Below are positions 41,065 to 63,586 of a DNA stretch of 64,000 nucleotides, one piece after another. Each line of letters opens with the position of its first letter. The stretch's first letter is position 1. The position numbers were made by a program, and so were the translations under genes. The notes under the pieces were generated by a model. The model made no database searches and was not told the origin of the DNA. It was given only the letters and a program-made list of their open reading frames with translations. Source of the stretch: Chloroflexota bacterium (lineage in GTDB: Bacteria; Chloroflexota; Anaerolineae; Anaerolineales; Villigracilaceae); assembly GCA_049323115.1 (NCBI GenBank), contig JBMOMP010000031.1, positions 36,018-100,017 on the forward strand, given 5' to 3'.

Positions 41065-41106
41065 GTTGCGGCCTCCTGGCAACAAGCATATTCCTATGAT
41101 TTTTTC

Positions 41107-44100: not shown

Positions 44101-45282
44101 GCACGGAGTCCCTGCCAGTCCCGCGGCTTGCAGTTTTTCTAGAACAGGTAATGGCAAGTTTTGGTGTGTAAATAATTCCAACTGACCCGAGGCTTCATTC
44201 TTGAGTGAAATGAGACCGCAACTGAAACCAAGCATATCCAAGATTTGTGCAAGGAGCGTTTCCAAGAGTTGCGTTAATTCCAGTGTTTGGCTGGAAGAGA
44301 AGATGATTCGGTTGAGGGCGCTTAATTCCTCAGCCCGAGCCTGTGTCTCTTGGAATAACCTGGCGTTGTCTAGGGCAACTGCAGCCTGGTTGGATAAAAT
44401 CATAGCCAGGTTCAATTCTTGTTGGGAGAACTGTCTTTCCTGGTAAAGTTCTTCGAGATGGATCATCCCTGTTGCACGGCCCTGCATGATGAGCGGCAAA
44501 CGCACCTGTGATTTGACACCATATTTCCTCATGTAGTCCTGTTCGGCGCTATCCAGGCTCGGATCATTAATTTGCAGGATGACAGGTTGCAACGTTGCCA
44601 GCATTTGTTGCGTGGCCGGGTAGTCTGCTGGGTCTGTTTCCAGGTTTGTCCATAATTCGTCTTCGGGGCGTTTTTTGTTTTCTGGTATGTAATCAACAAT
44701 GGTGCGCATTTTCCCTTGAGGGGTGAGCAAGAGAATAGAACATTCTGTTACCTGGAAAATTTGTATGAAGTATTTTGCAATCAGGTTCGCAATTTCTTCC
44801 AGTTGTAATGGCAACTCTGCCAGGTTCTGGCTTACGTTGAGTAGTGTTGTCAATTCTTGAACACGCTGTTGCGTTTCCTGGAACAGGCGCGCATTTTCCA
44901 TCGCAAGGGACAGTTGGTCGGCTACTTGTTTGACCAGCAATTGTTCTTCGGCGCCCCAAGTGCTTTTTCCTGATTCATCAACGACCTTGAGCGTCGACCA
45001 ATTCTTTTCGTCTATTCGGAAAGCGGTAGAAAGCATTGCAGTGGGGGAAACCTGCGTTGTAACGGGAGCAAGCCTGTCGTCGGCTTGAAGCGTCATCCCC
45101 GTCCCTGATAAAATTTCGGATATTTCATCCGAAAGGCTCATGGGAACGGACGGAAGGCTGGGCGCCTGTTTGGGCTTTCGACCGCCGCTTCTGCCCGGAC
45201 GTTCGGCTTGCGTCTCTGCTTCGTTGCTTTTTATCTCGTCGAAAAGTTTGTCAAGCCTGTTGTTTATCTTTTTCTTCGACAT
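41107..45282 (-). CDS. Giant hybrid sensor histidine kinase (half-GAF module, multiple GAF, 2 PAS, GAF, HisKA, HATPase_c, 2 REC)
   Basis: H-box: MSHELRTPLNSIIGF. HATPase_c: GGSGLGLSICHHLVQMHHG. The two receivers read ILTIDDDPQ...ILDIMMPGYDG and ILIIDDDPN...VLDLFMPDVDG. PAS-like segments are present. Start taken at ATG 45282 (MSKKKINN...), because the TTG at 45399 would overlap the ParA gene by about 150 nt. Confidence 0.85.
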   Translation of the reverse strand: MSKKKINNRLDKLFDEIKSNEAETQAERPGRSGGRKPKQAPSLPSVPMSLSDEISEILSGTGMTLQADDRLAPVTTQVSPTAMLSTAFRIDEKNWSTLKVVDESGKSTWGAEEQLLVKQVADQLSLAMENARLFQETQQRVQELTTLLNVSQNLAELPLQLEEIANLIAKYFIQIFQVTECSILLLTPQGKMRTIVDYIPENKKRPEDELWTNLETDPADYPATQQMLATLQPVILQINDPSLDSAEQDYMRKYGVKSQVRLPLIMQGRATGMIHLEELYQERQFSQQELNLAMILSNQAAVALDNARLFQETQARAEELSALNRIIFSSSQTLELTQLLETLLAQILDMLGFSCGLISLKNEASGQLELFTHQNLPLPVLEKLQAAGLAGTPCDHVFKSQSTLAVSDTREGTPVDFTGLINNGLFAYLGVPLEAKGQIVGTLCVFNENPEPMSENVISLTQSIGRQIGFAIENARLFQQTQQSESELKALFAAMEDVIIIYDREGRYERIAETNPNHLFRPTEEMLGRTLQEVLPENLHEPFLSTIRTTLDTGQSQEIEYPLEINGAEYWFDASVSKLTENHVFWVARDTTERKRAEENLRESEEKYRDLLNGMNDTIWVIDFDTTILDVNNAAMTALGYSREELLSMKISDIDVNLIPEQIQNLASNMPRDKVQVFETSHRTKDGKDIPVEISSSLVSYAGRTVIMSIARDITERKQNEEALRRRNEYLAASAEIGRLVTSSLDLKAIFSRAVNLVKERFGYYHAAIFIVEETGFNAVLQEATGEAGEQMKQRGHSLTVGSKSTVGQATETGNAIVINNTALDPIHKPNPLLPDTRAEAAIPLHIGNRIIGVLDIQSTEVNAFSQDDVAILQLLADQIAIGIDNARSYNIAQQAVQEMREVDRLKSQFLANMSHELRTPLNSIIGFARVILKGIDGPVTELQQQDLTAIFNAGQHLLGLINDILDLSRIEAGKMELSFSEVNIDDLVTSVMSTAAGLIKDKPITLKQEIATDLPTVRADPMRIRQVLINLLSNAAKFTEKGEITVRAEVDDLTTGQSSVIVTVTDTGPGISPEDQAKLFQPFSQVDASLTRKVGGSGLGLSICHHLVQMHHGRIGIHSMPGRGSSFYFTVPIFVKEQKISKSGFKTILTIDDDPQILNLYERYLRPKGFQVISLKDPQRAKERVRQLKPFAVILDIMMPGYDGWHVLDDLKSDPETRSVPIIICSILEEEEKGFSLGAADYLVKPIVEDDLLSSLDRLNNDGSIREILIIDDDPNDLRLLGTMISNQGRYKPILAEGGQAGWNAIQSKTPHAIVLDLFMPDVDGFSILEKLHENNELRDIPVVVVSSSDLTNEQYGQLQMFGQRLLQKSSLQEQELIGTIENALKRIDN

Positions 45283-46036
45283 ATTCCAGTAGCTCCTGGG
45301 CAAGGACACGATATTGTTGCGAGCCGCGACTATTGGGTTTGTATTGCGTAATTGGCTGGCCGGCAATAGGGCTTTCCCGCAGTTTCGTGTCAATTTCAAT
45401 CACGGTTTCGAACAGGCCTTTGCCAAAGGTATTTTGCAGTTGCTCTTGGATGTTACGGTGGGTGCGGTTCCTGCGATCCAGCATGGTGATGAGGATGCGG
45501 TAGGCGAGGTCGGGGTTGCTTTCCTGCCGTATCCGACGGATCATCCCCATCATATTGCGCAGGGCATAGGCAGAAAAGAACTCGGCTTGCGTAGGGATGA
45601 CCAGCAAATTTGCTGCGCTCAAGGCGTTTTGGGTAATGGCCCCCAGGAAGGGCGGACAGTCCAACAGGACAAACTGGTAGGGTAAGGGGGCTGCTGCTCC
45701 CAACGCGCGTCTTAGGATGGCTGTGTAGTTGTTGCGGATAGGGAGGTATTGCTCTGCAGTTTCGATGTTGGAGTGCGCCGGGATCAAGTCAATATTCTCG
45801 ATTTCTGTCTTTTGGATGGCGCTCAACAAGGGGGCTCCTTCTACCAGTATGTTGCTGGACGAAACCGGCGCCTGGTTGATTTCCAACCCAACGGCCAGAG
45901 TTAAATTTGCCTGGGGATCCAGATCCATCAGTAATACTCTTTGTCTGGTTTCTGCCAGGGCGGCGCCAAGAGATAAGGTGGATGTTGTTTTTGCCACCCC
46001 GCCTTTCTCGTTTGCAATTGCAATTATGTAAGTCAT
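45251..46036 (-). CDS. ParA/MinD-like deviant Walker-A ATPase (orphan; no ParB or parS nearby)
   Basis: IAIANEKGGVAKTTSTLSLG is the KGGxxK[ST] motif, followed by LLMDLDPQAN and VLLDCPP. The ATG at 46036 lies 6 nt after GGAGA; an alternative ATG is at 46042. Confidence 0.85.
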   Translation of the reverse strand: MTYIIAIANEKGGVAKTTSTLSLGAALAETRQRVLLMDLDPQANLTLAVGLEINQAPVSSSNILVEGAPLLSAIQKTEIENIDLIPAHSNIETAEQYLPIRNNYTAILRRALGAAAPLPYQFVLLDCPPFLGAITQNALSAANLLVIPTQAEFFSAYALRNMMGMIRRIRQESNPDLAYRILITMLDRRNRTHRNIQEQLQNTFGKGLFETVIEIDTKLRESPIAGQPITQYKPNSRGSQQYRVLAQELLEYVEEKDKQQA

Positions 46037-46076
46037 ACGCATTCTCCGTGCCCGGTTTTATCAATTTGAGCTGTTT

Positions 46077-48104
46077 TCATTTTTCATTGCTCTCTGGTTT
46101 TGGCAGGACGTGAGGCAATAACTGTACTTGTGTAGCCCCAAGCGCCACTTTGAGTTCTTCAAGGGCGATTCGTACCATGTCATCTGGATCGCTGGCGCTT
46201 CGTATTTTTGTTGTAATATCGGATACAAGGCGTTCTCGCTCTGCACGGCGCGTTGTCTCTTCCAAGAGGCGTGCATTCTCTGCCGAAATCGCCACGCGGC
46301 CAGCAACTGCCTTGATTAAATCCAGTTGATCCACACTCGGTTCTACTGTCAACGGAAGGTGGACGTCCAGCGTACCAATACGCTCTCCGCGGATCTCGAT
46401 TGGCATGGAGACTGAGTGGGTTCGCTCCTCGGTTGCAAGCAGGCTTTTATCCTGATTGAACCGTTGCCAGTCGCTTGGTTTTTCGACCTGGCTAACTCCG
46501 TCGGCTGTATAAATGATCCCGGCCAATGCCTGCTCTTTTGGTAATCTGTTCCAGGCTTGTCGGATGTATTGCCGGTAAACTGTCTCGGCTTCGTCCAGGG
46601 ATTTCCGCGCCTGGTCAAACAGGCGTGCATTTTCGATTGCAAGGCTCACCTGATCTGCCAGGAGGGAGAGCGCGCGAACATCATCTTCGCTAAAGGCGGC
46701 CGGCTCGGTGCTTTGTACATCCAGGGCACCAACGATAGATTTGCCAATCCTCAATGGTAGCGCTATTTCTGAGCGAGTTTGTGGCAGGTCGGGATTGTCG
46801 AAAAATACTGCATCTTCGCCAACATCCAGCGCGATACGCGGGTTGCCCGATCCGGTTGTGTAACCAACGATACCTTGTTCTCCTATCTTCAACTTATGCC
46901 CGCGCTCAAGCATGTGTTGGCCGCCTTCACTGTTCGCCGCCCTGAGAAGAGCATATTCTTTTCGGTCGTCGGTAAGGAAAATACCGACATGGTAAAAGCC
47001 AAACTCGCGACTGATCAGCTGGGTTATTTGGGGTAACAGTTCGTCCAAAGAGCGGATGGACGAAATTGCGCTGCTGACCAAAGTGATGGCCTCGAACTGT
47101 TTTGCACGCCGGTTGCTTTCTCTGCTCGCTAGTGCCAGGTCGCGGGTGCGTTCTTGCACTCTCTGCTCCAGTCCTGTCAGCGTCTCTCGAAGTTGTCTGG
47201 ACATATTGTTGAGCGTAGAAGCGAGGGCGGATATTTCGTCATTGCCGCCAATCGAAATAATAGCGCGCCTGTCCAGGTAACCTTCTTCCATAGCCTGTGC
47301 GGCATTTTGCACAACTTGCAATCTTTTGCTGACAGAGCGGGCGATGGAATAAGAAAGCAACAGACCAAAAATGATTGCTAGAAGTAGAGCCAGGACCATC
47401 CGTAAAATGATATCCTGGTAGGCGATTTGGATCATTTCGTTCAGCACGGTGGAAGCGTCGTCATTAATTTCAATTAATTGTTCAATGGAAGAGCGCGCCG
47501 ACGCAAGCGCTAAGAGTGCATCTTGATTTGCTTCGATGTCTAGAGCGCCTGCTTCTATTGCAACGACCATTGCGTTATATGATGATGAATATTTGGCATA
47601 TTCACTCGCAAACCGGTTAAAGTTCTCCAACTCCTTTGCCTGTAAGTCGTTGACCTTTTGTTCGATCTCGAGTTGTTTTGTTTGGCGCAGACCGGCAGGG
47701 AACTCTAAGGGTATAGGAGACAACCAAGTTGCCGCATACGTATCAATAATTGGTTTTATTTGTTCTTCCGCAGCGTGGATCGTTTGAATGTGATGGGTTT
47801 GTTCAGCCGTCAGGAGGTTTTTGTTTTGTAATGCAATCAGTGCAGTTTGAATATCGGCTAAAGCAGTGTTTACTTGACTGACTTTGGTGAAAGGTAGCAA
47901 TACTGTTTCGTAGTTTTTGTCTTGTTGGGCGCGAATTAACGTTAAACCACGGAGTGCGGTCAGGAAGACACCTATCGTGCCTAGCGCCATTACAAAGATC
48001 AATACGTTTAATTTCCAACTGACCTTTATATTTGCGAAGATGTCTTCCTGCGATTCTGCAGGCGCTTGCATTGTTTGTATTTGGCGGATATCGTTTGCGG
48101 TCAT
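46077..48104 (-). CDS. Receptor-like protein P1: TM / 4-helix-bundle-like sensor / TM / HAMP / signalling helix / GAF / half-GAF module / conserved tail; no output domain
   Basis: HAMP: IARSVSKRLQVVQNAAQAMEEGYLD...NDEISALASTLNNMSRQL. S-helix: LEQRVQERTRDL. GAF: FGFYHVGIFL...RSEIALPL...GALDVQS...LADQVSLAIENARLF. Tail: RERLVSDITTKIRSASDPDDMVRIALEELKVALGATQVQL. Confidence 0.8.
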   Translation of the reverse strand: MTANDIRQIQTMQAPAESQEDIFANIKVSWKLNVLIFVMALGTIGVFLTALRGLTLIRAQQDKNYETVLLPFTKVSQVNTALADIQTALIALQNKNLLTAEQTHHIQTIHAAEEQIKPIIDTYAATWLSPIPLEFPAGLRQTKQLEIEQKVNDLQAKELENFNRFASEYAKYSSSYNAMVVAIEAGALDIEANQDALLALASARSSIEQLIEINDDASTVLNEMIQIAYQDIILRMVLALLLAIIFGLLLSYSIARSVSKRLQVVQNAAQAMEEGYLDRRAIISIGGNDEISALASTLNNMSRQLRETLTGLEQRVQERTRDLALASRESNRRAKQFEAITLVSSAISSIRSLDELLPQITQLISREFGFYHVGIFLTDDRKEYALLRAANSEGGQHMLERGHKLKIGEQGIVGYTTGSGNPRIALDVGEDAVFFDNPDLPQTRSEIALPLRIGKSIVGALDVQSTEPAAFSEDDVRALSLLADQVSLAIENARLFDQARKSLDEAETVYRQYIRQAWNRLPKEQALAGIIYTADGVSQVEKPSDWQRFNQDKSLLATEERTHSVSMPIEIRGERIGTLDVHLPLTVEPSVDQLDLIKAVAGRVAISAENARLLEETTRRAERERLVSDITTKIRSASDPDDMVRIALEELKVALGATQVQLLPHVLPKPESNEK

Positions 48105-48107
48105 GCC

Positions 48108-50576
48108 TTACCTGTCAGTTTCTTTTTGCTTCAAGCGAATGGATACTTCGGAGCCAGGGATGGCCCGTCCCAACTCTTCAACAGCAGTGCGCAGAATGTT
48201 TTTAACATTGACGGATTCACCAATTTTCGATGTTATCTCGCTAATCGTTCTCTCACGGGTGGCGCGGCGGCGGGCTTCATCCAATAGATAGGCGCTTTCC
48301 AATGCCAACGCAGCGCGTTCGGCAGCGGCTTTTGTTAGGACCAATTCGTCATCGGTCCACTTGCGTTGGGTTTGCTTGGGCTTGATTTCGAGCATCCCCA
48401 TGGTTTGCCCGCGCAGTACGAGCGGGATGCTCATTTTGTCATCGTTGCTATCCATAAGGGAGGGCGCAATGGGCGCATCAAGCGGTAGGGTTGTTCCATC
48501 TCTGTAAAGGTAGCCCGTTTTTTTTGTTTGGCGGGTATATTGGGACCAAGCCTGGCCAAAATATTTATGATATGTTTCTTCTGCTTTTGCCAGTGCTCGT
48601 TGTGTTTCTGTAAATGAGCGCGAGTTCTCGATAGCAACTGCAACCTGGTCTGCCAGGGTGGAGATTACTGCAATATCTTCCTGCGAGAAAGCGTTTGTTT
48701 CGGTGCTTTGAACGTCCAGTACGCCAATCAATTGTTGACCAACTTTGAGGGGCAAGGCCATTTCTGAGCGTGTCTCTGGGAGGTCGGGATTATTGAAAAA
48801 GACAGCGTCTGCGCCGGTATCAAGGGCAATACGCGCTGATTGGGTACTGGCTGCGAAGCCGACAATGCTGTGCGGTTCGACAGCCAATTTGTGTTGGCGC
48901 GCCAGCATTTTTTGTCCTCCTTCGCTATTGGCGGCTACCAGCACGACATCTTGCCCGCTTGTATCTAATAAGAAAATGCCAGTATGATAGAAACCAAATT
49001 GCTCGGAGATCTCCCGGGTGATATCGGACAGGAGCAGGCCCAGGTCGCGGATGGATGCGGCGGCGCGCGCAACTTCTGAGACCGCCTGGAGTTGATTCGC
49101 TCGTTTTTGTAGCGCGGACGTACGTTCCTGTACCCGTTCTTCGAGAGAGGAGATCAAATCGCTCAATCTTGCCGACATGGTGTTCAGAGTCTCGGCCAGG
49201 GTCGTGATCTCGTCCTTCACTCTTGTGGTGATACTGGCTTGGGCTGCCAGGTTTCCGGATGCAATTTCAGATGCTGTTTGTGTTAACTTGGTTAGTGGTG
49301 AGGTGAGCAGGTTGCTGACACCCCAAGAGACAAGTGTTGCAACTCCTATAACGACACCCAGTACGATGAAGACAAAAATGATCGTTGTGGCGGTTTCGCG
49401 TTCCAGCGTCTGGATAGCGGTAAGGAATGGCTGGCGCAGTTCACTGACCGGTACGACGATGCCCAGGCTGTAGTTGACATTTGGGATGGGGCGGTAGGCA
49501 ACATATTTATCAACCCCATTGACCTGTACGATTTGCAGACCTCGTTGCCCTCCGGTCATCTTGATTACAATCTTGAACATTTCAAGGGGTACTTTGTCTG
49601 GCAGGGTGTATTGAACGATTTCGTCGTCCGGGATGTCGGCGGGAATGCCAAAATCTGCATACCCTTCTTTTGGCATTGAGATCACGCGACCTTCTTTGTC
49701 AACCAGGAAAGCATAACCTGTGTTACCGGCTCGGATGGAGGAGACTGCCTGGGTCACGCTGGTCATGAGTACATCGGCTGCCACCACGCCTCGAAATTCG
49801 TTGGAAGCGTCATAAATAGGAGCGCTGCTTGTAATCACCAGACCGTGCAAAGCGGCATCTTGGTAAGGGACAGACCATACGGTCTCTCGGTTTGGGTCCG
49901 ATACAGGCAAGGCTGCTAAAAACCAGGGTCTTTGCGTAACATCGAAATCAGCCGGCACAATGTTGGCGAGGTCTATATTTGGGTAATACAATGTTTCCTT
50001 ATCGTTTCCACCAAAGTACAATGCAATGATATTTGGGTTTTCCTTCAGTATGATCGGCGCAATCGTATCCAATTGTTTTAGTGCATTAATCTCACTTGCC
50101 AGTTTCCCAGTCAATACCACTTTGGCCGGGATGAAGATCGAGCCAGTTTCCTGGTTGGGATTATCCAAACTTCCGCCAGGAAGAGGAAATAGGGTTTCGC
50201 TTGCGTTCCATAAGACTCCAGAAATATAGATGCCATTAGCCAGTTCGTTTTCCTGCTCGATGAAAGTTTCTGTGGCAATGCGAGCCGTTTCCAGGTTCTT
50301 TTCAGTAGTTTTAAAGAAAGAATTTAGCGCTGACGCCCCTTCGATTAGCGTAGCATTCAAGCGGTTTTCAGTTTCCTGTTGCACGCTTTTGTCTAATTGC
50401 TCTGTCAACAAAGTACTGAGCGCTTGGGCACGATTAAGCAGGTAGTATCCAACAAAGATGATTGCTGCAATTGTAATAAACAGGTTGGCAACAATCAATT
50501 TTGTGCGCAGGGAGACAAAATTGGAGCGTGGCGCCTTATTTTTGGGAGTGTGATTTTCTGGAAGCGTGTCTGTCAT
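48108..50576 (-). CDS. Receptor-like protein P2: TM / dCache_1-like sensor / TM / HAMP / GAF / half-GAF module / conserved tail
   Basis: The double-Cache pattern is present (RPWFLAA, VPYQDAALHGLVITSSAPIYD...GVVAADV, GYAFLVDKEGRV). HAMP and LEERVQERTSAL follow. The GAF core is the same as in P1. Tail: RERTISEITSKIGESVNVKNILRTAVEELGRAI. Confidence 0.8.
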   Translation of the reverse strand: MTDTLPENHTPKNKAPRSNFVSLRTKLIVANLFITIAAIIFVGYYLLNRAQALSTLLTEQLDKSVQQETENRLNATLIEGASALNSFFKTTEKNLETARIATETFIEQENELANGIYISGVLWNASETLFPLPGGSLDNPNQETGSIFIPAKVVLTGKLASEINALKQLDTIAPIILKENPNIIALYFGGNDKETLYYPNIDLANIVPADFDVTQRPWFLAALPVSDPNRETVWSVPYQDAALHGLVITSSAPIYDASNEFRGVVAADVLMTSVTQAVSSIRAGNTGYAFLVDKEGRVISMPKEGYADFGIPADIPDDEIVQYTLPDKVPLEMFKIVIKMTGGQRGLQIVQVNGVDKYVAYRPIPNVNYSLGIVVPVSELRQPFLTAIQTLERETATTIIFVFIVLGVVIGVATLVSWGVSNLLTSPLTKLTQTASEIASGNLAAQASITTRVKDEITTLAETLNTMSARLSDLISSLEERVQERTSALQKRANQLQAVSEVARAAASIRDLGLLLSDITREISEQFGFYHTGIFLLDTSGQDVVLVAANSEGGQKMLARQHKLAVEPHSIVGFAASTQSARIALDTGADAVFFNNPDLPETRSEMALPLKVGQQLIGVLDVQSTETNAFSQEDIAVISTLADQVAVAIENSRSFTETQRALAKAEETYHKYFGQAWSQYTRQTKKTGYLYRDGTTLPLDAPIAPSLMDSNDDKMSIPLVLRGQTMGMLEIKPKQTQRKWTDDELVLTKAAAERAALALESAYLLDEARRRATRERTISEITSKIGESVNVKNILRTAVEELGRAIPGSEVSIRLKQKETDR

Positions 50577-50599
50577 ACAAACTCGTTTCGATACTTAAC

Positions 50600-52564
50600 T
50601 TAGAGCGCTTGGTTTTCAGGTTGATTGGGCGTATCGTCTGAAAGGATCTTGACGCTTACTTCACAATCGGTCAATAAAGTACCCAGGCTTTCGGCAGTGG
50701 CCCGCAGGATTGTATCCACTTCCGGTTCGGCCCCGATGCGGCTGGAAACATTGGCGATTGCGCGTTCCAGTTCGACGCGGCGTTGCGTGTCTTGGTACAA
50801 TCGCGCGCTTTCCAGCGCAGCGCTAATTTGATAAACCAGCCTGTTCACAACGCCTATTTCATCGAGCGTCCAATCTTGCGTTTCGGGTGACTTCACCAAA
50901 CGCACAATGCCGATTGTCTGGTTGCGCACTTGAATTGGAGCAGCCAGCGTTTTTCGGTCGTCGCTCAAGATAGGTTCGCCTGCCTTACTGGCTTGGACCG
51001 CCTCCGGTTGTTGCAGCGTGGCATCGCTGGGCATTATTTCTCCATGTGCATACCCGATAAAACCTGTTTTGCTTACCCTGGTGAGTACCCGTCGCCATCC
51101 TTCTTGGCTGCTTTCCGCATAAGCCCGGCGGACAGCCGCAAGAGCCTGCTGTGTTTTCTCCAATAAGCGGGCGTTTTGCAAGGCGGTTGCCAGTTGATCT
51201 GCCAGTACCTGGAGGGTAGGAATATCATCTTCGGCAAAAGCGTTTGGCTCAGTACTCTGGATGTCCAATATCCCCAGCGTTTCTCCTCCTGCAATGATGG
51301 GGAGGGACATCTCGGAGCGCGTTTGAGGTAATTGCGGATTATTGAAATAAACTGCGTCCTTACCGACATCCAGCGCGATTCTTGCCTGGCCCGAACCTGC
51401 TACCGTTCCAACGATGCCTACCTCACCGACTTTCAGCTTGTGTCCTTGCGCCAACATGCGCGCCCCGCCAGGACTGTTCGAGGCTCGCAATATAGCGTAC
51501 TCTTTAGGGTCGTCTAATAAAAAGATGCCAACATGATAGAAACCAAACCGGTCACTGATTAATTGGCTGGTCCTGTGTAGCAACTCATTCAACTCATGTT
51601 GCGCAGCGACTGACTTTCCGACCTCAACAGCCGCTTGAATTTGGGATACCCGTCTTTCCAGCGCTTTTGTGCGCTCTGCAACCTGCTCCTCCAAATTCGT
51701 TACAAGTTTTCGCAATTGGCCAGCCATGTCGTTGAATGTGTCTGCAACCAATCCCATTTCATCGGCGCTGTTGAGCTCGATCTTGGCATCGAGGTTCCCG
51801 CCTGCCAGTTGTTTGACGCCAATTGTTAGGGTTTCAAGGGGAGTGGTCAAGTTTTTGCCAAACAGCCATCCAAGTCCTGCAATGAGAGGAATGGATAAGA
51901 GAAGAACGATTGCCGCTGTAAAGAGGGCTTGTTGTTCCTTTTCAAGCACTTTGGAGGCCGATATGTCTATGCCGACGATTCCTTCGCGCTGGCCATCTGA
52001 GCGATAAAAAGGAGCATAGGCGGTGAGCCAGGTCCCCCACTTGTCAGTGTAAAAATCTGCCTCTACCACAGGCTCTTGTAAAGTCGAAAACGACTCGCGA
52101 AGTAAGGGGCCAGCATCATCATATACATCCCCCAAATGAGAAATATCCTCCTCGCTCTCTTCTGCGTCAACGATGAACACAATATTTCCATCTGCATTCT
52201 GGCGCATTGTATATACAAAGCGGATGTCTGTGCCAGAGTCGCGGATATCTTGTAAAACTCTTTTTAGCGCAAGATAGGTTTCGTTTCCTTCTTGAGATGG
52301 ATCGGTCAGCAGGGCATGTTCATCTCCATCAATCTGTAATGCGCCAACAGCGGCAACATCTCGCAGGCGCTCCCGGATATCCTGGCGCAATTGTGCGCGT
52401 GCGCTCCAATAATATGCAAGCGTTATCAGGCCGACAAAGAAGATGGCCAGGAAGGAAAAGGCAAACGCTGATTTTATTCGCAGACTCAAATAATATTGGG
52501 ACCGTCTGGTGTTATTCACGCGTTTGCCCTCCTGAGATTGCGCGTTTGCTGTCGGTCGAGGCAT
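50600..52564 (-). CDS. Receptor-like protein P3: TM / single-Cache-like sensor / TM / HAMP / GAF / half-GAF module / conserved tail
   Basis: The periplasmic segment reads IRFVYTMRQNADGNIVFIVDAE...WGTWLTAYAPF...GIVGIDIS. HAMP and LEEQVAERTKAL follow, then the GAF core. Tail: LERAIANVSSRIGAEPEVDTILRATAESLGTLL. Confidence 0.8.
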   Translation of the reverse strand: MPRPTANAQSQEGKRVNNTRRSQYYLSLRIKSAFAFSFLAIFFVGLITLAYYWSARAQLRQDIRERLRDVAAVGALQIDGDEHALLTDPSQEGNETYLALKRVLQDIRDSGTDIRFVYTMRQNADGNIVFIVDAEESEEDISHLGDVYDDAGPLLRESFSTLQEPVVEADFYTDKWGTWLTAYAPFYRSDGQREGIVGIDISASKVLEKEQQALFTAAIVLLLSIPLIAGLGWLFGKNLTTPLETLTIGVKQLAGGNLDAKIELNSADEMGLVADTFNDMAGQLRKLVTNLEEQVAERTKALERRVSQIQAAVEVGKSVAAQHELNELLHRTSQLISDRFGFYHVGIFLLDDPKEYAILRASNSPGGARMLAQGHKLKVGEVGIVGTVAGSGQARIALDVGKDAVYFNNPQLPQTRSEMSLPIIAGGETLGILDIQSTEPNAFAEDDIPTLQVLADQLATALQNARLLEKTQQALAAVRRAYAESSQEGWRRVLTRVSKTGFIGYAHGEIMPSDATLQQPEAVQASKAGEPILSDDRKTLAAPIQVRNQTIGIVRLVKSPETQDWTLDEIGVVNRLVYQISAALESARLYQDTQRRVELERAIANVSSRIGAEPEVDTILRATAESLGTLLTDCEVSVKILSDDTPNQPENQAL

Positions 52565-54218
52565 CCTGGGGGGTGGTCAATCGTACTTCGGCCTCTTGTA
52601 AATTTAACGCGCGTTGTAACTCTTGCGCTGCCGTGCGTAGAACGGTCTCCAAATCCAGAGTCTCTCTTATTCGGCTGCTTATATCTGTCACAGCCTGCTC
52701 GCGCAAGGCGCTTTCACGCGCCTGCTTGATCAATCGGGCGTTATCGAGTGCCAGTGCAGTTTGCGTGGCTATTTCATTTGCTAACTGGCGCTCATTACTC
52801 GTCCAGTCTGGCTGGCTGGGTTTTCGTTGGAGGGTAATTCTTCCGATCTTTTGCCCGCGGAACAATATAGGTATGGACATTGTATAGCGCTCATTGCTGG
52901 GAATTGCCTCCTGTTGCAATGAGCGAACGCCGGTCTGTGAATAATGATAACCAGGTATTTTGGAACTTAGTTGCTCTTGCCAATCCTGGCGAGCAAATTC
53001 CGTTGACATCATCTCCAGTTCGTGAATTAGAACTTGGCTTTCAGTGATCAAACGGACATTTTCTATTGCAACGGCTATTTGATCTGCCAGGGTTTGAAGG
53101 ATATCTACATCATCCTGATTGAATGCTTGAGGTTCGGTGGATTGAACATCCAGAACGCCAATCAGCCTGTCTTGTGCTATGAGCGGAATTGCAATTTCTG
53201 AGCGGGTTTTAGGGAGCTCCGGGTTGTTGAAAAACACAGCATCTTCCCCAACATCCAGCGCAATGCGTGGTCTTTTTTCTGCCGCTACAAAGCCCACGAT
53301 CCCTTCTGTGCCGATGCGCAACCGATGCCCACGTTCTATCATCCGCCTACCGCCCTCTGAAGAGGTTGCCTGTAGGACGGCATAGTCTTCTTTTTCTGAA
53401 ATCAGGAAAATACCGGCATGGTAAAAGCCAAATTCTTTGGAAATCAATTGCGCTACATTGGGAAGCAGGACACTCAAATCTTTGAACTCCGCCGCCTGCT
53501 GGGCGATATAGGCGGCAGCGTTTAACTGATTGGCTTTTTTCTCGAGTTCCTTTGTTCGCTCTGCAACGCGTTGTTCCAAAGACGTGCGTTCTTCCTCAAG
53601 GGTTCGAAGGGCTTGGGTAAGGTCTTCGTTTGACTCTATGAAACCAAGTTGAAGTCTACGCAAACCGGCAACAACGATAACGGAAAGGAAAAGTTGTGTT
53701 GTTATGCTGCTGACCCAGTCTTCTAAATTTCCGGCGTTTGCTGTTGTATCTAAGAGCTGGTAATAGCCTCCCAGTATGGCCATTGCACCGGCGATGAGCG
53801 TGGCTATGCTCACTGCAATAGCAAGGATTCCAGCCCTGGGCGAAAAAAGCAGAGTAGTAATAGCAACAAACGTAAGCAAATAGATATCTGCGTTGCTAGT
53901 GATCCCGTTTTCGAGGATGTCGCCGATGCCAATTGCCAGCAACAAGAATAAGATTACTCCGCCTCGGACTTGATAAGGAAATGGAATGAAAATAACTGCA
54001 AGCAAAATGACATAACTTACAACGTAAACGATGAACAGGCTTTGGTCTGATATACTGAAGAAAGCGGAGGTGAGCGCAATCAAGCCAAAGATAGCTGCCC
54101 CGGCGAATAGGGAGTGCAAGAAACGGTTCCGCCATTCTTGTGGAGAAGTCAATTCTGATTCTGGGGTGTCAATTTGTTCGGGGCGTTTCATAGCATTTAC
54201 ATAATTTCCATCAATCAT
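52512..54218 (-). CDS. Receptor-like protein P4: polytopic (about 6 TM) N-terminus / signalling helix / GAF / half-GAF module / conserved tail (no HAMP seen)
   Basis: A hydrophobic N-terminal third is followed by LEQRVAERTKEL and the GAF core FGFYHAGIFL...RSEIAIPL...GVLDVQS...LADQIAVAIENVRL. Tail: REQAVTDISSRIRETLDLETVLRTAAQELQRAL. Confidence 0.8.
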   Translation of the reverse strand: MIDGNYVNAMKRPEQIDTPESELTSPQEWRNRFLHSLFAGAAIFGLIALTSAFFSISDQSLFIVYVVSYVILLAVIFIPFPYQVRGGVILFLLLAIGIGDILENGITSNADIYLLTFVAITTLLFSPRAGILAIAVSIATLIAGAMAILGGYYQLLDTTANAGNLEDWVSSITTQLFLSVIVVAGLRRLQLGFIESNEDLTQALRTLEEERTSLEQRVAERTKELEKKANQLNAAAYIAQQAAEFKDLSVLLPNVAQLISKEFGFYHAGIFLISEKEDYAVLQATSSEGGRRMIERGHRLRIGTEGIVGFVAAEKRPRIALDVGEDAVFFNNPELPKTRSEIAIPLIAQDRLIGVLDVQSTEPQAFNQDDVDILQTLADQIAVAIENVRLITESQVLIHELEMMSTEFARQDWQEQLSSKIPGYHYSQTGVRSLQQEAIPSNERYTMSIPILFRGQKIGRITLQRKPSQPDWTSNERQLANEIATQTALALDNARLIKQARESALREQAVTDISSRIRETLDLETVLRTAAQELQRALNLQEAEVRLTTPQDASTDSKRAISGGQTRE

Positions 54219-56139
54219 TGGTTAATTCAATCGTAGCTTCTGTCGCATCAAGGGTTATTCCAAGCTCGCGAATTGCTGTTTGCAAAATACCTTCCATGGT
54301 CGTTGAAGTCCAAATTTTGTTGCTAATGTCTGCAATCGTTTTCTCTCGGTTGGCGATGTTTTGTGTTTCCTCGAGCAAGCGTGCATTCTCTAGTGCCAAA
54401 GCCGTTTGTGTGGCAATTGCTTGCATCCAGGTTTGTTCTTCTGGGGTAACGTTTTCTCCCCTTTCAAGCCGGATTTTTCCGATAACCTGGTCGCGCAAGG
54501 CTATTGGAATTTCAACAGCATGTTCGTTGTCCGTTTCCGTGTCATCGCCAATTGATAGTGTCGTTTCTCCTCGAGGCAGGTTGGATTCCCCCCATGCTTG
54601 GCGGAGATATTGCCGCTGGATGTTGCGTAGTTCTTGCAAGTTTCGTTGGGTTTCTTGGAAAAGGTGGGCATTTTCGAGTGCAATGGCGACTTGATTGGTC
54701 ATATTTTGGAGAGTTTCGATGTCCTGCTGGCTAAAAGCTGCTTCTTGTGTTGATTGCACATCTAGCGCCCCAAGGATCCTGTCGCCTATGATCAGTGGTA
54801 AGGCTGTTTCGGAACGAGTATAAGGCAACAGGGGGTGCTCGAACCGTGCATTATCTTTGTCTGTATCCAATGCTACTTGCGCTTCTCTTCTTTTGATAGC
54901 GCGCCCGATTATCGTTTGCTCGTTGATTTCCAAGCGATGTTTGCTGTTTTTCATAACTTGGCCAGCTTCGCCGGTGGCTTCTACGAGTTCTGCCCAGCGG
55001 TTGCTTGAATCAACCAGATAAATGGCGGTGTAATAATGTCCAAATTGCTCTCGAATTAGGCTGACTATACTGCTCATCAATTTATCTGGGTCGAGGATGG
55101 ATGTGGCTACCCGCCCGACCTCGTTAATTGCTCTAAGTTGAGCAGTTCTGTCTTCTACTTGCCTTTCCAGGGTTTCTTGCAGTTCATCTAGCCGGGAAAT
55201 CATGCGGTTAAAGTAAATGGTTACTTGTGCAATTTCGTCAGATGCGCTAATCCGAGCCCGTTGCTTCAGGTTGCCTTGTTCGACCTTCTTGAAAACGCTT
55301 ATCATTTCGTTCAGGGGACGGGTGAGGGAGATCGAAAACAGAGAGACGAGCCCAAGTCCAAGGAAGATCGCAAAAGCGCTTACAAGGATGGACTGTACCT
55401 GTAATTCGGATAAAACCTGGGTGGAGCCAATTTCCTCGTAAAGTACTCTGAAAGTTTGGTGGTATCCAATTGGCGCAACGAGCAAAATGCTGAGGACGAT
55501 CATGGCGGGTACCACTATGTAAATTCGCCCCAAGAGGGTAAACCCGCTTGCGCCTGCCAGTTGCGTATCAAAATCTTTTGGCAGAAGGGCATGGCGGACA
55601 GAGACGAGAAGTCGATCAAGAATACTTACATCGAGCGTGACAATGGATAAGGTAATGATCGTTATGCTAATTACGATGTAAACTAGTTGGTCATACGTGG
55701 CGTGGAGGTAAAAATACGAGTAAGACAAAAGTGATATACCCACTACAATAAAATTAATGCAAGATGCTATGATTGCATATTTCCAAGTCCAGGTGCCGGC
55801 TTGTTGCCATGCTGTTAGTTCATCTACAGATCCAGGAATTAGCGAGCTCCCCTTTTTATATCGTTGCAGGCCGCGGAAAGCCTTTTTATTAAGAAAGTAT
55901 GAAGAAAACCATACAATGGCATTCCCAAGCAAGGCTAAGAATCCGGCTAATCTTGTAAGTTGGTCAAACTCTGCAGGTGAAAACTCGGCGTTGATTTGAG
56001 CAATGATGATAACCGGAATAGCGACAAAATTTGATCCCATCTGTGCCACAAAACTTGACAGCACGAGGTAGTACCCGCCCGACCATTTTAGAACCTGGCT
56101 CAGAAATCTTTGAATAGAACTTTCGCTTTGCGATTCCAT
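54211..56139 (-). CDS. Receptor-like protein P5: polytopic N-terminus / HAMP / GAF / half-GAF module / conserved tail
   Basis: HAMP: LTRPLNEMISVFKKVEQGNLK...SDEIAQVTIYFNRMISRL. S-helix: LERQVEDRTAQL, then the GAF core. Tail: REKTIADISNKIWTSTTMEGILQTAIRELGITL. Start chosen at ATG 56139, with AAGGA upstream. The ORF track extends to a TTG at 56199, and another ATG lies at 56187. Confidence 0.75.
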   Translation of the reverse strand: MESQSESSIQRFLSQVLKWSGGYYLVLSSFVAQMGSNFVAIPVIIIAQINAEFSPAEFDQLTRLAGFLALLGNAIVWFSSYFLNKKAFRGLQRYKKGSSLIPGSVDELTAWQQAGTWTWKYAIIASCINFIVVGISLLSYSYFYLHATYDQLVYIVISITIITLSIVTLDVSILDRLLVSVRHALLPKDFDTQLAGASGFTLLGRIYIVVPAMIVLSILLVAPIGYHQTFRVLYEEIGSTQVLSELQVQSILVSAFAIFLGLGLVSLFSISLTRPLNEMISVFKKVEQGNLKQRARISASDEIAQVTIYFNRMISRLDELQETLERQVEDRTAQLRAINEVGRVATSILDPDKLMSSIVSLIREQFGHYYTAIYLVDSSNRWAELVEATGEAGQVMKNSKHRLEINEQTIIGRAIKRREAQVALDTDKDNARFEHPLLPYTRSETALPLIIGDRILGALDVQSTQEAAFSQQDIETLQNMTNQVAIALENAHLFQETQRNLQELRNIQRQYLRQAWGESNLPRGETTLSIGDDTETDNEHAVEIPIALRDQVIGKIRLERGENVTPEEQTWMQAIATQTALALENARLLEETQNIANREKTIADISNKIWTSTTMEGILQTAIRELGITLDATEATIELTND

Positions 56140-56158
56140 AAAAGTGTTTCCTTGGCCG

Positions 56159-58300
56159 TTATGAGGCGGTTTCGTTGCCGTCGTCATTTTTAATGCCAAT
56201 TGTAATTTGCGCTTTGCGCGCGCTCGTTACTCGACTTAATTCACCAACGGTGGTCATCAAGATTGTTTGCATATCTGTGGACTGGCGGATTTTGCTTGTG
56301 ATTTCATATAAAAGCCGCTCACGTTCGGCTTGCCTTCGTATTTGCTCCAAGAGCCGAGCATTGGCAATAATGGCTGCCAAGCTGCCCGCCAGTGTTCCGA
56401 GCATTTCTTCGTCGTTATCTGTATAGGCTGCAATCTGTTCGCTTTCAACATTTAATACACCCAATAGTTCATTTCGAAAGATGAGAGGGATTGTCATCTC
56501 AGATCGGGTGTTGGGGCTTAATTGGATATAGCGAGTATCTTCGGCAATGTCATCGATGCGCAACGATTTCCGATGCGCAGCCACCCAACCGGTAATACCC
56601 GTTCCAATTGGAATAATGCGATTTACCACGTCCTCTGAATAACCGACCCATGCTTTAGGGATCAAATTCTTTCGCTCAAGGTCAGTCAACATGATTAAGA
56701 CCCGGTCTCCGCCCAGGCTGACTTGCAACCCTTTGACAGCGCTTTCCAACGCCTCGTCCAAGGTCGTGCCCGACGCAGCAGAGGTCGTGATGTGATGTAA
56801 CAATCGGTGTTGGGATAAGTGTTCTTGCGTTTCAGCAAAAAGTTCCGAATTGTTAACGGCAATAGCCAACTGGTCGGCGAGAATTTGCAAAGTATCCAAG
56901 TCGGACGGCCCGAACGAGAATGGAACTACGCTTTGTACATCCAAGACGCCCAGAGTGTGGTCGCCAATTTTCAGCGGAATAGCGGCTTCGGCGCGCGTAT
57001 CAGGCAACAGGGGGTTAGGTAGATGCGTGGCATCTTTAGCAGTATCGTTGACAACCAGAGGGTCGCCTTGTCCTGCCACGAAGCCAACAATTGATTTTGA
57101 GCCTATAGCCAGTTTATGTCCGCTGCGTTTCATCTGGGCGCCGGCCTCTCCTGTTGCTTCGCGGATGATTACATTCTTGCCCGTGTTGTCAACCAAGAAA
57201 ATGGCTGCGTGATAGAAATTCAGTCGTTCGCGGATAAGATTGACTGCTTTCAGGAGTAGTTCGTCTAAATTCAAGGCGCTGCTGATGTCGCGGGCAATCT
57301 GTGCTGCTGTCTGGATTTGAAACACCTGGCGGTGGCTTTCATCTAGGAGCATCTTGCTGTGAAGGATGCCGGCAACTTGTTGAGCAAGCATGTACAGGGT
57401 TTGAATGTCTTTTTGGCGAAACATTCCATCCCGTTCCAAGTCTTGTACGATGAATGCACCAATTACCTGGTTGGCAATCATCAGCGGAACCCCCATCCAT
57501 GATCTGGCTGGCTTGCCAATCACTTTTGCGCCTAGAGACTCGGCCTGTCTTTCAACATCTTCATTAAGCAACAGCGGCTGTTTGGTGTGAATTAGTATAG
57601 TAATCAGGCCTTCACCGAGAGGAAATGTTTCGATTGAACTGATTTTGCCGTCTTCATAGGAGTAAGGAATTCGAATAGATGCGGTTTTTTCATCATACAG
57701 TGCAGCAATAAACGCATAATCACCGATTAGACGGCTTACTTGTTCGTGGATTGCACCGAAAACGCCTGCAATGTTGTCGGAGACACTTGCCTGGCTTATT
57801 GCTGTCAAGGCTTCTAATTGCGCGACATGTAAATTAGTTTGCTGTGTGGCTTCTGTTTGGTCGATTATTATTGTGGCAAGATTCACTATATTGATGCAGG
57901 GTTGAATATCTTCTGTTGTAAGTGTCTGGCTTTCCTTGGCCCCTACGAGAACGAGTCCGAGCATCTCACCTTTCCCCGGAAAAGCGACCAGGGCAACTTT
58001 TTTTACTTGAAAGTGGGCAATGAACTGAAAAATGCCTGATAGGCCTACACTGTCATCTGGAAGTGTGTGAAATTTGATATCTCCCCTAAGATGCTTTTCT
58101 AGCAGACTGATGTTGACTGGAATTTTTTGGGGGAGTTCTTCTTCTGTTGTATGTTCGATATTTGAAACCGAAATTAACTCAAGAGCCTCGTTACCTATTT
58201 CGAACACAGCGGTAAAATAGCATAACCCCTCTAGCGCCTTTGCAAGGTGTTTCAGCGTTCGAGACAATACATCTGGATTCACGGTTAACTGAGCTCCCAT
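56159..58300 (-). CDS. Receptor-like protein P6: soluble, about 4 tandem GAF domains plus the same conserved tail
   Basis: There are no TM segments. The third GAF shares the family core (LNFYHAAIFL...TRAEAAIPL...GVLDVQS). Tail: RERLLYEITSKIRQSTDMQTILMTTVGELSRVT. Confidence 0.8.
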   Translation of the reverse strand: MGAQLTVNPDVLSRTLKHLAKALEGLCYFTAVFEIGNEALELISVSNIEHTTEEELPQKIPVNISLLEKHLRGDIKFHTLPDDSVGLSGIFQFIAHFQVKKVALVAFPGKGEMLGLVLVGAKESQTLTTEDIQPCINIVNLATIIIDQTEATQQTNLHVAQLEALTAISQASVSDNIAGVFGAIHEQVSRLIGDYAFIAALYDEKTASIRIPYSYEDGKISSIETFPLGEGLITILIHTKQPLLLNEDVERQAESLGAKVIGKPARSWMGVPLMIANQVIGAFIVQDLERDGMFRQKDIQTLYMLAQQVAGILHSKMLLDESHRQVFQIQTAAQIARDISSALNLDELLLKAVNLIRERLNFYHAAIFLVDNTGKNVIIREATGEAGAQMKRSGHKLAIGSKSIVGFVAGQGDPLVVNDTAKDATHLPNPLLPDTRAEAAIPLKIGDHTLGVLDVQSVVPFSFGPSDLDTLQILADQLAIAVNNSELFAETQEHLSQHRLLHHITTSAASGTTLDEALESAVKGLQVSLGGDRVLIMLTDLERKNLIPKAWVGYSEDVVNRIIPIGTGITGWVAAHRKSLRIDDIAEDTRYIQLSPNTRSEMTIPLIFRNELLGVLNVESEQIAAYTDNDEEMLGTLAGSLAAIIANARLLEQIRRQAERERLLYEITSKIRQSTDMQTILMTTVGELSRVTSARKAQITIGIKNDDGNETAS

Positions 58301-58735: not shown

Positions 58736-59110
58736 TCAGCTCCTCAAAAAATGTTCGATGTGTTCCGTGAGCAGGTCAATGTCAATAGGCTTTTGTATAT
58801 ACCCATCGCATCCCGCTTCAAACGATTTTTCCCGGTCGCCGCGCATCACATTGGCTGTGATTGCAATGATGGGAATTTTGCTGAGACCCGGTATTTTCCT
58901 TATTTCGGTGGTTAAGGTGTAACCGTCTTTGTCTGGCATGTTGATGTCCATCAGGATCAAATGAGGCTTTGTGGTTTCCAATATTTTCAGCGCTTGCATA
59001 GCGTTTGCGGCCTCTAACATATTATATCCTTCGGCTGCCAGTACGCGCCGTACGAGTGTCCGGTTGTCGCTGTTGTCTTCAACGTAAAGGATTGTGATGT
59101 TTTTTGTCAT
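58736..59110 (-). CDS. Single-domain CheY-like response regulator (REC-1; first gene of the operon)
   Basis: The internal ATG at 59110 is preceded by GGAGG. It reads MTKNITILYVEDNSDN...LILMDINMPDKDG...IPIIAITANV...GCDGYIQKP. The ORF-track start at 59188 lies inside the tRNA terminator hairpin. Confidence 0.85.
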   Translation of the reverse strand: MTKNITILYVEDNSDNRTLVRRVLAAEGYNMLEAANAMQALKILETTKPHLILMDINMPDKDGYTLTTEIRKIPGLSKIPIIAITANVMRGDREKSFEAGCDGYIQKPIDIDLLTEHIEHFLRS

Positions 59111-59174
59111 CTGCCGAGCCTCCGCTTCGAATTTTACTTGCAGGTATCTTTTGGTTTCATAACAGCAACCTTGC

Positions 59175-59210
59175 AAAAACAAAAGCACGGCTTCTCAAGA
59201 AACCGTGCCT
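59175..59210 (-). terminator. Rho-independent terminator downstream of tRNA-Gly
   Basis: The minus strand reads AGGCACGG-TTTCTTGAGAAG-CCGTGCT followed by TTTTGTTTTT. Confidence 0.6.
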
Positions 59211-59607: not shown

Positions 59608-59633
59608 CTATCCTGCTATGAATAGCAGGATAG
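59608..59633 (+). other. 5'-leader hairpin immediately downstream of the rpoB promoter
   Basis: An 11-bp perfect stem, CTATCCTGCTA (59608-59618) with TAGCAGGATAG (59623-59633), and loop TGAA. Confidence 0.55.
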
Positions 59634-59689
59634 ATTCGTGTGTCTTAAGGCGGTTAAATCCGTGTTCAGCCCAATCTATGGAGAGACGA

Positions 59690-63586
<3,897 letters not shown>

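Follow-up and report, generated by a model that had tools for sequence, protein, structure and literature searches.

How does a sensor protein without an output domain pass on what it senses? Such proteins are common in genome censuses and poorly understood, and the question is raised six times over in a window of 64,000 nucleotides from a Chloroflexota bacterium of the order Anaerolineales (assembly GCA_049323115.1, contig JBMOMP010000031.1, positions 36,018 to 100,017 of the forward strand; coordinates below are those of this whole stretch). Six co-directional minus-strand genes, P1-P6, fill positions 46077-58300 of the window, and their products all end in a similar tail of about 40 residues. 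An earlier inspection of the letters without database searches (here the sequence-only reading) took the tail for the beginning of a GAF domain and suggested that it serves as a docking site. The explanation that we favor, tentatively and as close to an even call, is that the tail is an orphan N-terminal fragment of a GAF/PHY unit that has become the fixed C-terminal module of output-less sensors and forms their coupling tip.

Conservation of the tail among six paralogs

The tails are located as follows; the bit scores are those of a hidden Markov model (HMM) trained on homologous tails.

46119..46238, minus strand: P1 tail, residues 623-662, 60.9 bits; comprises the last part of the spine helix, the return helix and a short beta1-like segment of hydrophobic character
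48138..48257, minus strand: P2 tail, residues 774-813, 48.7 bits
50651..50770, minus strand: P3 tail, residues 599-638, 35.4 bits
52584..52703, minus strand: P4 tail, residues 506-545, 55.9 bits
54229..54348, minus strand: P5 tail, residues 618-657, 32.0 bits
56204..56323, minus strand: P6 tail, residues 660-699, after a complete GAF domain (class B), 35.6 bits

A stop codon lies 5-23 residues past each 40-residue tail. The six strings align free of gaps, as the sequence-only reading had seen by eye, with a mean pairwise identity of 0.35 versus 0.082 +/- 0.011 for shuffled sequences (maximum 0.125 in 2000 shuffles). Across the six-frame translation of the window, the HMM scores 32-61 bits at exactly these six sites and at most 1.8 bits elsewhere. 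The paralogs are not otherwise divergent, as had been claimed: identity is highest in their 162-residue main GAF domain (47%), lower in the tail (35%) and lowest in the intervening module (25-28%). Nor does the tail resemble the starts of the full GAF domains of the same proteins at the level of sequence. The tail HMM reaches no more than 0.3 bits there, and the likeness noted earlier is one of secondary-structure pattern only.

The proteins that carry the tails are encoded by the following genes, with domains assigned by Pfam.

46077..48104, minus strand: P1, 4HB_MCP-like sensor, HAMP, GAF, mini-GAF and tail; no output domain
48108..50576, minus strand: P2, dCache, HAMP, GAF, mini-GAF and tail
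50600..52564, minus strand: P3, periplasmic sensor with a transmembrane region, HAMP, GAF, mini-GAF and tail
52512..54218, minus strand: P4, MASE11, GAF, mini-GAF and tail, without HAMP
54211..56199, minus strand: P5, sensor with multiple transmembrane segments, HAMP, GAF, mini-GAF and tail
56159..58300, minus strand: P6, soluble multi-GAF protein with tail, without HAMP

Neighboring genes abut or overlap when their open reading frames (ORFs) are checked, and because they adjoin within a few bases there is no space for the remainder of a GAF domain after the tails. No HisKA, HATPase, GGDEF, EAL, MCPsignal or other output domain was found in P1-P6 by Pfam at E<=0.1, and comparison with NCBIfam yields sub-threshold partial matches only. 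By Pfam, HisKA and HATPase_c in this cluster are confined to the downstream gene at 41107-45282.

Homology of the tail to phytochrome-class GAF domains

To trace the origin of the tail, a profile was built from 70 diverse tails together with the end of the alpha5 before them and was compared with the sequences in the PDB. The profile matches the N-terminal ends of GAF domains of the phytochrome and cyanobacteriochrome (CBCR) class and one PHY start, with E about 5e-14 to 5e-4, which bears out the earlier view of the tail as an N-terminal GAF fragment. The best match is the GAF-PHY structure of SyB-Cph1, 8W26 (E=4.6e-14), which is hit at the start of its GAF domain (residues 11-53) and at the start of its PHY domain (residues 198-247). 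The GAF start of 6OAP is matched at E=2e-12, and further matches are 2LB5, 6BHN, 8K9O, 6OZA, 3OOV, 6XHG, 6UV8, 5ZOH and 3W2Z. In CBCR-type GAF chains such as 6BHN and 3W2Z, the matched part consists of the N-terminal ~40-60 residues. The connector-alpha1-beta1 signature of phytochrome and CBCR GAF/PHY domains (R-E-R..I...IR.SLD...IL.T.V.E....L.....V) is present in the tails.

When the preceding module is included, the profile aligns contiguously with residues 151-251 of 8W26 (E=2.6e-20), a region that runs from the last two GAF strands through alpha5 and the connecting helix to the beginning of PHY with its first helix and strand. The module itself matches Pfam GAF positions 72-132, the C-terminal half of the domain, in agreement with its earlier description as the last strands and last helix of a GAF. 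On these profile matches, the tail is the first ~45 residues of a phytochrome-class GAF/PHY unit, comprising the connector helix, alpha1 and beta1.

The tail does not amount to a GAF domain by family criteria. Searched alone against Pfam, the P1 and P6 tails have no match, and a consensus-like tail reaches E=0.075 and 14 bits over GAF positions 1-31, below the cut-off of 22.4; the curated threshold for membership in PF01590, PF13185 or PF13492 is thus not reached. No Pfam or NCBIfam model covers the tail. The complete GAF fold, a five- to six-stranded antiparallel sheet with flanking helices, is not formed by the tail in AlphaFold2 (AF2) models, which give two helices and an unpaired segment. 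As the chain ends after beta1, the body of the GAF domain is missing, and with it the bilin pocket and the chromophore cysteine.

Terminal position and selection across relatives

A chain that stops after beta1 may be suspected of being a truncation, a frameshift or an annotation artifact, with the genes really running on into a complete GAF domain. Relatives of the window bear on this question, among them 78 genome loci, all from metagenome-assembled genomes (MAGs) of Anaerolineales or other Chloroflexota. The best 120 database homologs of the module-plus-tail profile all end 5-40 residues past the tail. In the 78 genome loci, a stop codon comes within 50 residues for 384 of 387 tails, and with 80 metagenome loci added the count is 629 of 638 scored tails (160 related loci). 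The three exceptions among the genome loci were inspected and are long low-complexity extensions or masked sequence; tails with 60-115 following residues were for the same reason rejected as natural continuations.

Purifying selection on the protein is seen between the window and one genome locus of 89% identity to it (L040). Over 240 tail codons there are 66 synonymous-only versus 21 replacement differences, and every paralog retains its own tail; the synonymous excess and the paralog-specific tails therefore argue for selection on the protein and against gene conversion. Rare proteins with internal copies of the motif, and frameshifted genes in some MAG assemblies, could be taken to favor an artifact. 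Against them stand the six of six window genes and the 629 tails of independent assemblies that stop at the same place, the next gene beginning a few bases on, and the constraint on the tail codons. The stop-position counts and the codon analysis refute the artifact, which retains next to no probability.

The frameshifted assemblies are a matter of their own. Receptor, kinase and PALP genes are split into two or three ORFs in L001 (Ca. Villigracilis affinis, JADJKT010000037.1), L017, L026, L030 and L036, and these split ORFs are probably frameshift errors of long-read assemblies and not real gene fragments. Another locus, L065 (CAZAGR010000008.1), has nine tail-bearing receptor genes and carries the label 'uncultured Propionivibrio sp.', probably through mis-binning of a contig from Anaerolineales.

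The domain preceding the tail is a mini-GAF of the W-helix type for 533 tails (84%), as in P1-P5, and 93% of the proteins with such tails have predicted transmembrane segments. The remaining 103 tails (16%) have a different domain in front of them, in most cases a complete GAF like that of P6. Tails after a mini-GAF (class A) and tails after another domain (class B) have the same consensus, with a correlation of per-column information of r=0.88, and the constraints on the tail are, by this comparison, independent of the preceding domain. Internal tails are rare, and their only natural occurrences are in P4-like relatives with two or three tandem units of mini-GAF and tail (P0197, with 790 residues, P0220, P0161, P0162 and P0271).

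An exhaustive profile search returned 66,451 proteins at E<=0.001, a number owed mostly to the fact that the profile picks up any GAF-GAF junction. The tail-specific HMM mostly matches once per protein, at its end. The best 150 of the 66,451 are giant multi-GAF proteins, of which about a third are tail-ended and the others end in HATPase or REC; six tail-ending giants contain only GAF and PAS domains by Pfam. Two interpretations of the giants were rejected. They are not tandem repeats of mini-GAF and tail, as their multiple matching stretches are ordinary GAF-GAF junctions, and the tail-ending ones are not independent lineages, as the two with readable context belong to the same operon type, directly after ParA.

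Predicted structure and covariation of the tail and mini-GAF

What the tail looks like at the end of the chain was addressed with two AF2 monomer models, of P1 residues 331-675 (125-sequence alignment, mean predicted local distance difference test score (pLDDT) 91) and of P0197 residues 296-790 (mean pLDDT 72.5). From 821 unique tail-bearing C-termini that were collected, the 652 with a complete mini-GAF and tail (167 match columns, effective number 520) were subjected to mean-field direct coupling analysis (DCA). The mini-GAF domains of the window lie between the main GAF and the tail.

46239..46604, minus strand: P1 mini-GAF, consisting of W-helix, hairpin, helix, hairpin and alpha5 (Pfam, four strands in AF2, DCA)
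48258..48599, minus strand: P2 mini-GAF
50771..51148, minus strand: P3 mini-GAF
52704..53036, minus strand: P4 mini-GAF
54349..54645, minus strand: P5 mini-GAF

The P1 model begins with a canonical GAF domain, from whose alpha5 a 53-residue helix runs into the W-helix of a four-stranded mini-domain (E199-203, E206-210, H213-226, E232-241, E244-254). One continuous helix (H261-305) takes in both the mini-domain's alpha5 and helix 1 of the tail, and a return helix (H310-325) comes after it. Residues 326-340 of the model (GATQVQLLPHVL) have pLDDT 85-94, yet DSSP assigns them no strand or bridge. The structures that Foldseek recovers with the P1 model are all GAF or GAF-PHY, and it is the main GAF that accounts for these matches. 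The tail is thus predicted to be a helix-turn-helix that closes a continuous spine helix of ~45 residues, with a last segment that is well ordered and not strand-paired. In terms of the structure check proposed with the sequence-only reading, the tail is predicted with confidence as a helical hairpin rather than disordered, and these monomer models do not pair the terminal tail with a strand or a GAF sheet.

In P0197, mini-GAF and tail alternate three times, starting with a mini-GAF and ending with a tail. Its internal tails form beta1 strands in the model (E145-148, with low confidence, and E294-300, with pLDDT about 89), whereas its terminal tail has no strand by DSSP, although it stands behind the best-predicted mini-GAF. 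On the simplest reading of the models, beta1 pairs if a mini-GAF comes after it, which is the order of a canonical GAF, and terminal tails are left as orphans.

DCA recovers the expected hairpins (29-40, 30-39, 31-38; 69-74) and strand-alpha5 contacts (70-105, 80-97, 32-104). According to the pairs 28-80 and 31-78, the mini-GAF has the strand of its first hairpin beside its last strand and therefore its own beta1-equivalent; together with the two hairpins of AF2, this goes against a circular permutation, for which the module would have to lack one. Covariation within a part is strongest in the tail, to which 67 of the top 167 pairs belong. Its helix 1 couples with helix 2 (133-150, 124-151, 136-143), and helix 2 in turn couples, in antiparallel register, with the last segment (152-161, 154-163, 149-158); the last segment also couples with helix 1 (135-157, 134-160, 123-164).

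These data bear on the proposal that P1-P5 contain a circularly permuted GAF, in which the tail would fold back in cis or within a homodimer and give alpha1 and beta1 to the preceding mini-GAF. Sixteen couplings above 0.8 link tail and mini-GAF, compared with 0-2 in shuffles, and their register would set the tail segment alongside alpha5 and helix 2 of the tail against strands beta4 and beta5; proteins with tandem mini-GAF and tail can also be read as repeats of a permuted unit. The models point the other way, as terminal tails are strandless in both and internal tails are stranded. With alpha5 and tail helix 1 continuous, the tail would lie about 30 A past the module, judging from the helix lengths, and the last strand of the mini-GAF is already paired with its own strand by DCA. 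Furthermore, the 16% of tails that sit behind a complete GAF share the profile of the others, class A and class B tails being alike. A permuted GAF is very unlikely on this evidence.

The hairpin could instead be a passive structural cap that merely ends and stabilizes the dimeric helical spine of GAF arrays, a leftover of GAF-array growth with no partner-specific function. Its confident and self-contained prediction and its strong internal covariation are consistent with a cap, as are the absence of concerted evolution within a locus and the fact that the tail closes any output-less GAF array, after a mini-GAF or a full GAF, a kinase-derived adaptor included. Other features fit such a role poorly. 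Polar positions are near-invariant (R290, A291, R293, E294, T301, R305 and E320 in family alignment A2), more than 800 unique sequences retain a last segment with hydrophobic alternation, the end point is constant to a few residues, and a beta1-like segment would be superfluous for a simple helix cap. We regard a purely passive cap as improbable.

Operon organization and candidate partners

If the tail couples the sensors to something, the partner may be sought in the operon. At many loci in Anaerolineales, synteny takes the form of 4-8 tail-bearing genes, a ParA-like ATPase, a kinase, a fusion of a PALP enzyme with a receiver domain (PALP-REC) and often then an EamA transporter. The relevant features of the window are as follows.

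45251..46042, minus strand: ParA/MinD-like ATPase between the receptors and the kinase, a fixed operon member in 115 loci
41107..45282, minus strand: hybrid histidine kinase with GAF domains, two PAS, GAF, HisKA, HATPase and two REC domains; likely start MSKKK
45226..45282, minus strand: conserved N-terminal peptide of the kinase, MSKKKINNRLDKLFDEIKS, with an LxxLFxD[ILV]-like motif
44866..45039, minus strand: orphan half-GAF of the kinase, two strands and alpha5, consensus LSLAFQ..NWATLQVVDE..R.W..EQLLVKQV.DQLSLALENARLFQETQ

The kinase opens with a lysine-rich peptide containing a short amphipathic helix (MSKKKINNRLDKLFDEI), followed by a variable low-complexity linker of 80-100 residues, a highly conserved orphan half-GAF and then complete GAF domains. 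The half-GAF is the most conserved part of this N-terminal region and stands at the N-terminus of the protein after ParA in 86 of the 107 loci with a readable post-ParA gene, the window included.

In the explanation that we favor, the connector helix of the tail continues alpha5 of the preceding domain and leads into alpha1 and then the beta1-like segment. In a receptor dimer, two such hairpins would make a four-helix tip at the membrane-distal end, and this tip would couple the 4-8 sensors of the operon to a single soluble kinase or to a ParA-organized complex. A coupling tip is suggested because the tail is among only three elements conserved throughout the family (main GAF, mini-GAF and tail) in proteins that have no enzymatic output. 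In operons of the window type, the orphan half-GAF of the kinase would be the most specific candidate partner, with which the tail could form a composite GAF-like domain in trans.

In the GAF fold, beta1 adjoins the last strand and alpha1 packs on alpha5. By this topology, the receptor tail and the kinase half-GAF are therefore reciprocal, spatially contiguous parts. A stronger claim is that reassembly of the two, alpha1 and beta1 from the tail with the half-GAF of the kinase, is the specific and sufficient mechanism, by which every receptor would be linked end-to-end with the kinase as its output domain in trans. The claim draws on the presence of reciprocal orphan fragments within one operon at 86 of 107 loci, the half-GAF standing behind its low-complexity linker, on the contiguity of the fragments in the established fold, and on the models, where an internal tail gains its strand if a mini-GAF comes next. 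Sister operons encode full-length receptor-kinases that have a mini-GAF inside the chain, which makes an origin by fission plausible. Yet the half-GAF lacks the W-helix and first hairpin of every mini-GAF that stands behind an internal tail, it is missing in 21 loci, tails show no genome-specific co-adaptation, and 4-8 receptors would have to share one kinase. As a sufficient mechanism, split-GAF docking is doubtful. An extended version, which seems to us equally unlikely, is a chemosensory-array-like machine built of GAF parts, in which the first third of a GAF on each output-less sensor plugs non-covalently into the last third on the shared kinase. In this version, vacant mini-GAFs of other components could serve as alternative sockets, one kinase would read 4-8 receptors, and the ParA-like ATPase would position the assembly, which would amount to a natural split-domain system of docking that integrates signals.

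Several observations weigh against the tail as a coupling tip with the kinase as its partner. The 21 of 107 loci without a half-GAF on the post-ParA protein have 1-8 tails each, and there the protein opens with an LxxLFSD[ILV] peptide followed by a complete GAF or by a region without a half-GAF match; as a universal partner of the tail, the half-GAF is thereby rejected. A kinase N-terminal part that is encoded separately has a tail at its own end, and the protein that comes next opens with PAS or dCache and not with the remainder of a GAF. Concerted evolution was not detected, in that tails of the same locus are no more alike than tails of different loci when divergence is matched. Being better conserved than the tail, the main GAF could be the real coupling surface in its place. 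Finally, the weaker couplings between tail and mini-GAF, which exceed those in four pairing shuffles, set the last tail segment along its own alpha5 in parallel register (columns 96-114 versus 157-164), a misfit with the monomer model; they may stem from the common ancestry of orthologue groups or from docking of one chain on another.

The separate N-terminal GAF proteins, of up to 1787 residues and tail-ended, were seen in regions of L004 (11848-18042), L043 (11823-20989), L160 (10001-19659) and L161 (10001-18603). The protein after them is a kinase core starting with PAS in L004 and L043 and a dCache-HAMP membrane protein in L160 and L161. The arrangement looks like gene fission or fusion at the position of the tail.

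The post-ParA protein almost always opens with a short peptide, of the form MSKKK..NNRLDKLFDEI in the window and M.D.DL..LEGLFSD[ILV] in other loci (L001-L161). The same opening motif heads other giant Chloroflexota kinases (9 of 150 top representatives). This N-terminal peptide could be an element that binds ParA, REC or the tail.

Other features of the gene cluster

The main GAF domain and the remaining genes of the cluster are listed below.

46611-47096, minus strand: main GAF, first of six copies
48606-49091, minus strand: main GAF
51155-51640, minus strand: main GAF
53040-53525, minus strand: main GAF
54652-55137, minus strand: main GAF
56831-57316, minus strand: main GAF
39394..41085, minus strand: PALP-REC fusion, a pyridoxal phosphate-dependent enzyme (threonine-synthase-like) with a C-terminal receiver, the conserved last gene of the cluster
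58736-59188: stand-alone REC gene, upstream of the receptor genes

The main GAF is exactly 162 residues long in all six paralogs, of which it is the best-conserved part, and has an FGFYH.GIFL motif; its constancy suggests a shared ligand or a shared interaction surface. The PALP-REC fusion always stands after the kinase, and a metabolic output of the pathway is possible. The G+C content is 0.56-0.63 at 1-36 kb, 0.47-0.50 over the signaling cluster (36001-60000) and higher again at rpoB (59618-63586), and the AT skew is strongly negative across the minus-strand genes of the cluster.

Significance

Literature on the operon, on MASE11-GAF proteins and on truncated, split or domain-swapped GAF domains was searched, and nothing relevant was found. 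What is new, as far as sequence comparison goes, is a conserved terminal module derived from GAF in an uncharacterized, widespread signaling cluster of Anaerolineales. These abundant bacteria, among them Ca. Villigracilis from activated sludge, are for the most part uncultured, and insight into their signaling is therefore new. The module provides a testable handle on output-less sensors, as 40 residues under selection at the C-terminus of more than 800 distinct proteins, in a strongly conserved operon that also encodes a single kinase and a ParA-like ATPase. Should the tail be a coupling site, several sensors would share one kinase without adaptors of the CheW/CheA type, and a fragment of a common fold would have been retained as an interaction module. 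If the kinase fragment completes the tail, the operon would be a natural case of domain fission and reassembly for signal integration, and possibly a template for engineered split sensors.

Comparison with known systems

The closest relatives by homology are the knotless phytochromes (SyB-Cph1, 8W26; Cph2, 4BWI) and the GAF domains of CBCRs (6BHN, 3W2Z, 6OAP), which correspond to the window proteins over the last strands, alpha5, the spine helix, the first helix and beta1. The junction between GAF and PHY in phytochromes has the same helix-turn-helix-strand pattern as the predicted secondary structure of the tail. Unlike in phytochromes, the chains of the window end after beta1, without the remaining sheet, the bilin pocket or a downstream domain, and the hosts are HAMP-GAF transmembrane sensors and not photoreceptors.

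Methyl-accepting chemotaxis proteins (MCPs) and their arrays display a similar logic, with many output-less transmembrane sensors, a helical hairpin tip distal to the membrane, a shared soluble kinase and a ParA-like ATPase. ParC and PpfA are ParA-like ATPases that position chemoreceptor arrays. In contrast, the Pfam scan finds no MCPsignal (PF00015), CheA, CheW, CheR or CheB, but only 4HB_MCP_1 or dCache sensor modules, HAMP and GAF. The stalk in the window consists of GAF modules, and an array of these receptors would be a putative one; membership in the MCP/chemosensory family fails on every defining feature tested. The analogy of the sequence-only reading with C-terminal motifs of MCPs is accordingly loose. 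The tail, a predicted folded helical hairpin with 5-40 variable residues after it, is not a linear motif like the pentapeptide at the extreme C-terminus of MCPs.

Tandem GAF sensor histidine kinases of Chloroflexota, such as the product of the gene at 15370-19659 in L160, share the layout of sensor, HAMP, GAF and mini-GAF and the same ENARLFEET motif in alpha5. In these receptor-kinases the mini-GAF is followed by a complete GAF or PAS domain and by HisKA-HATPase, whereas the proteins of the window end 40 residues into the next unit. The signaling helices (S-helices) and coiled-coil linkers described in PMC1592074 resemble the spine of the tail in that a long continuous helix leaves the sensor domain and a parallel dimeric arrangement is expected. 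The S-helix joins an output domain (PMC1592074); in the window, the helix turns back and the protein ends.

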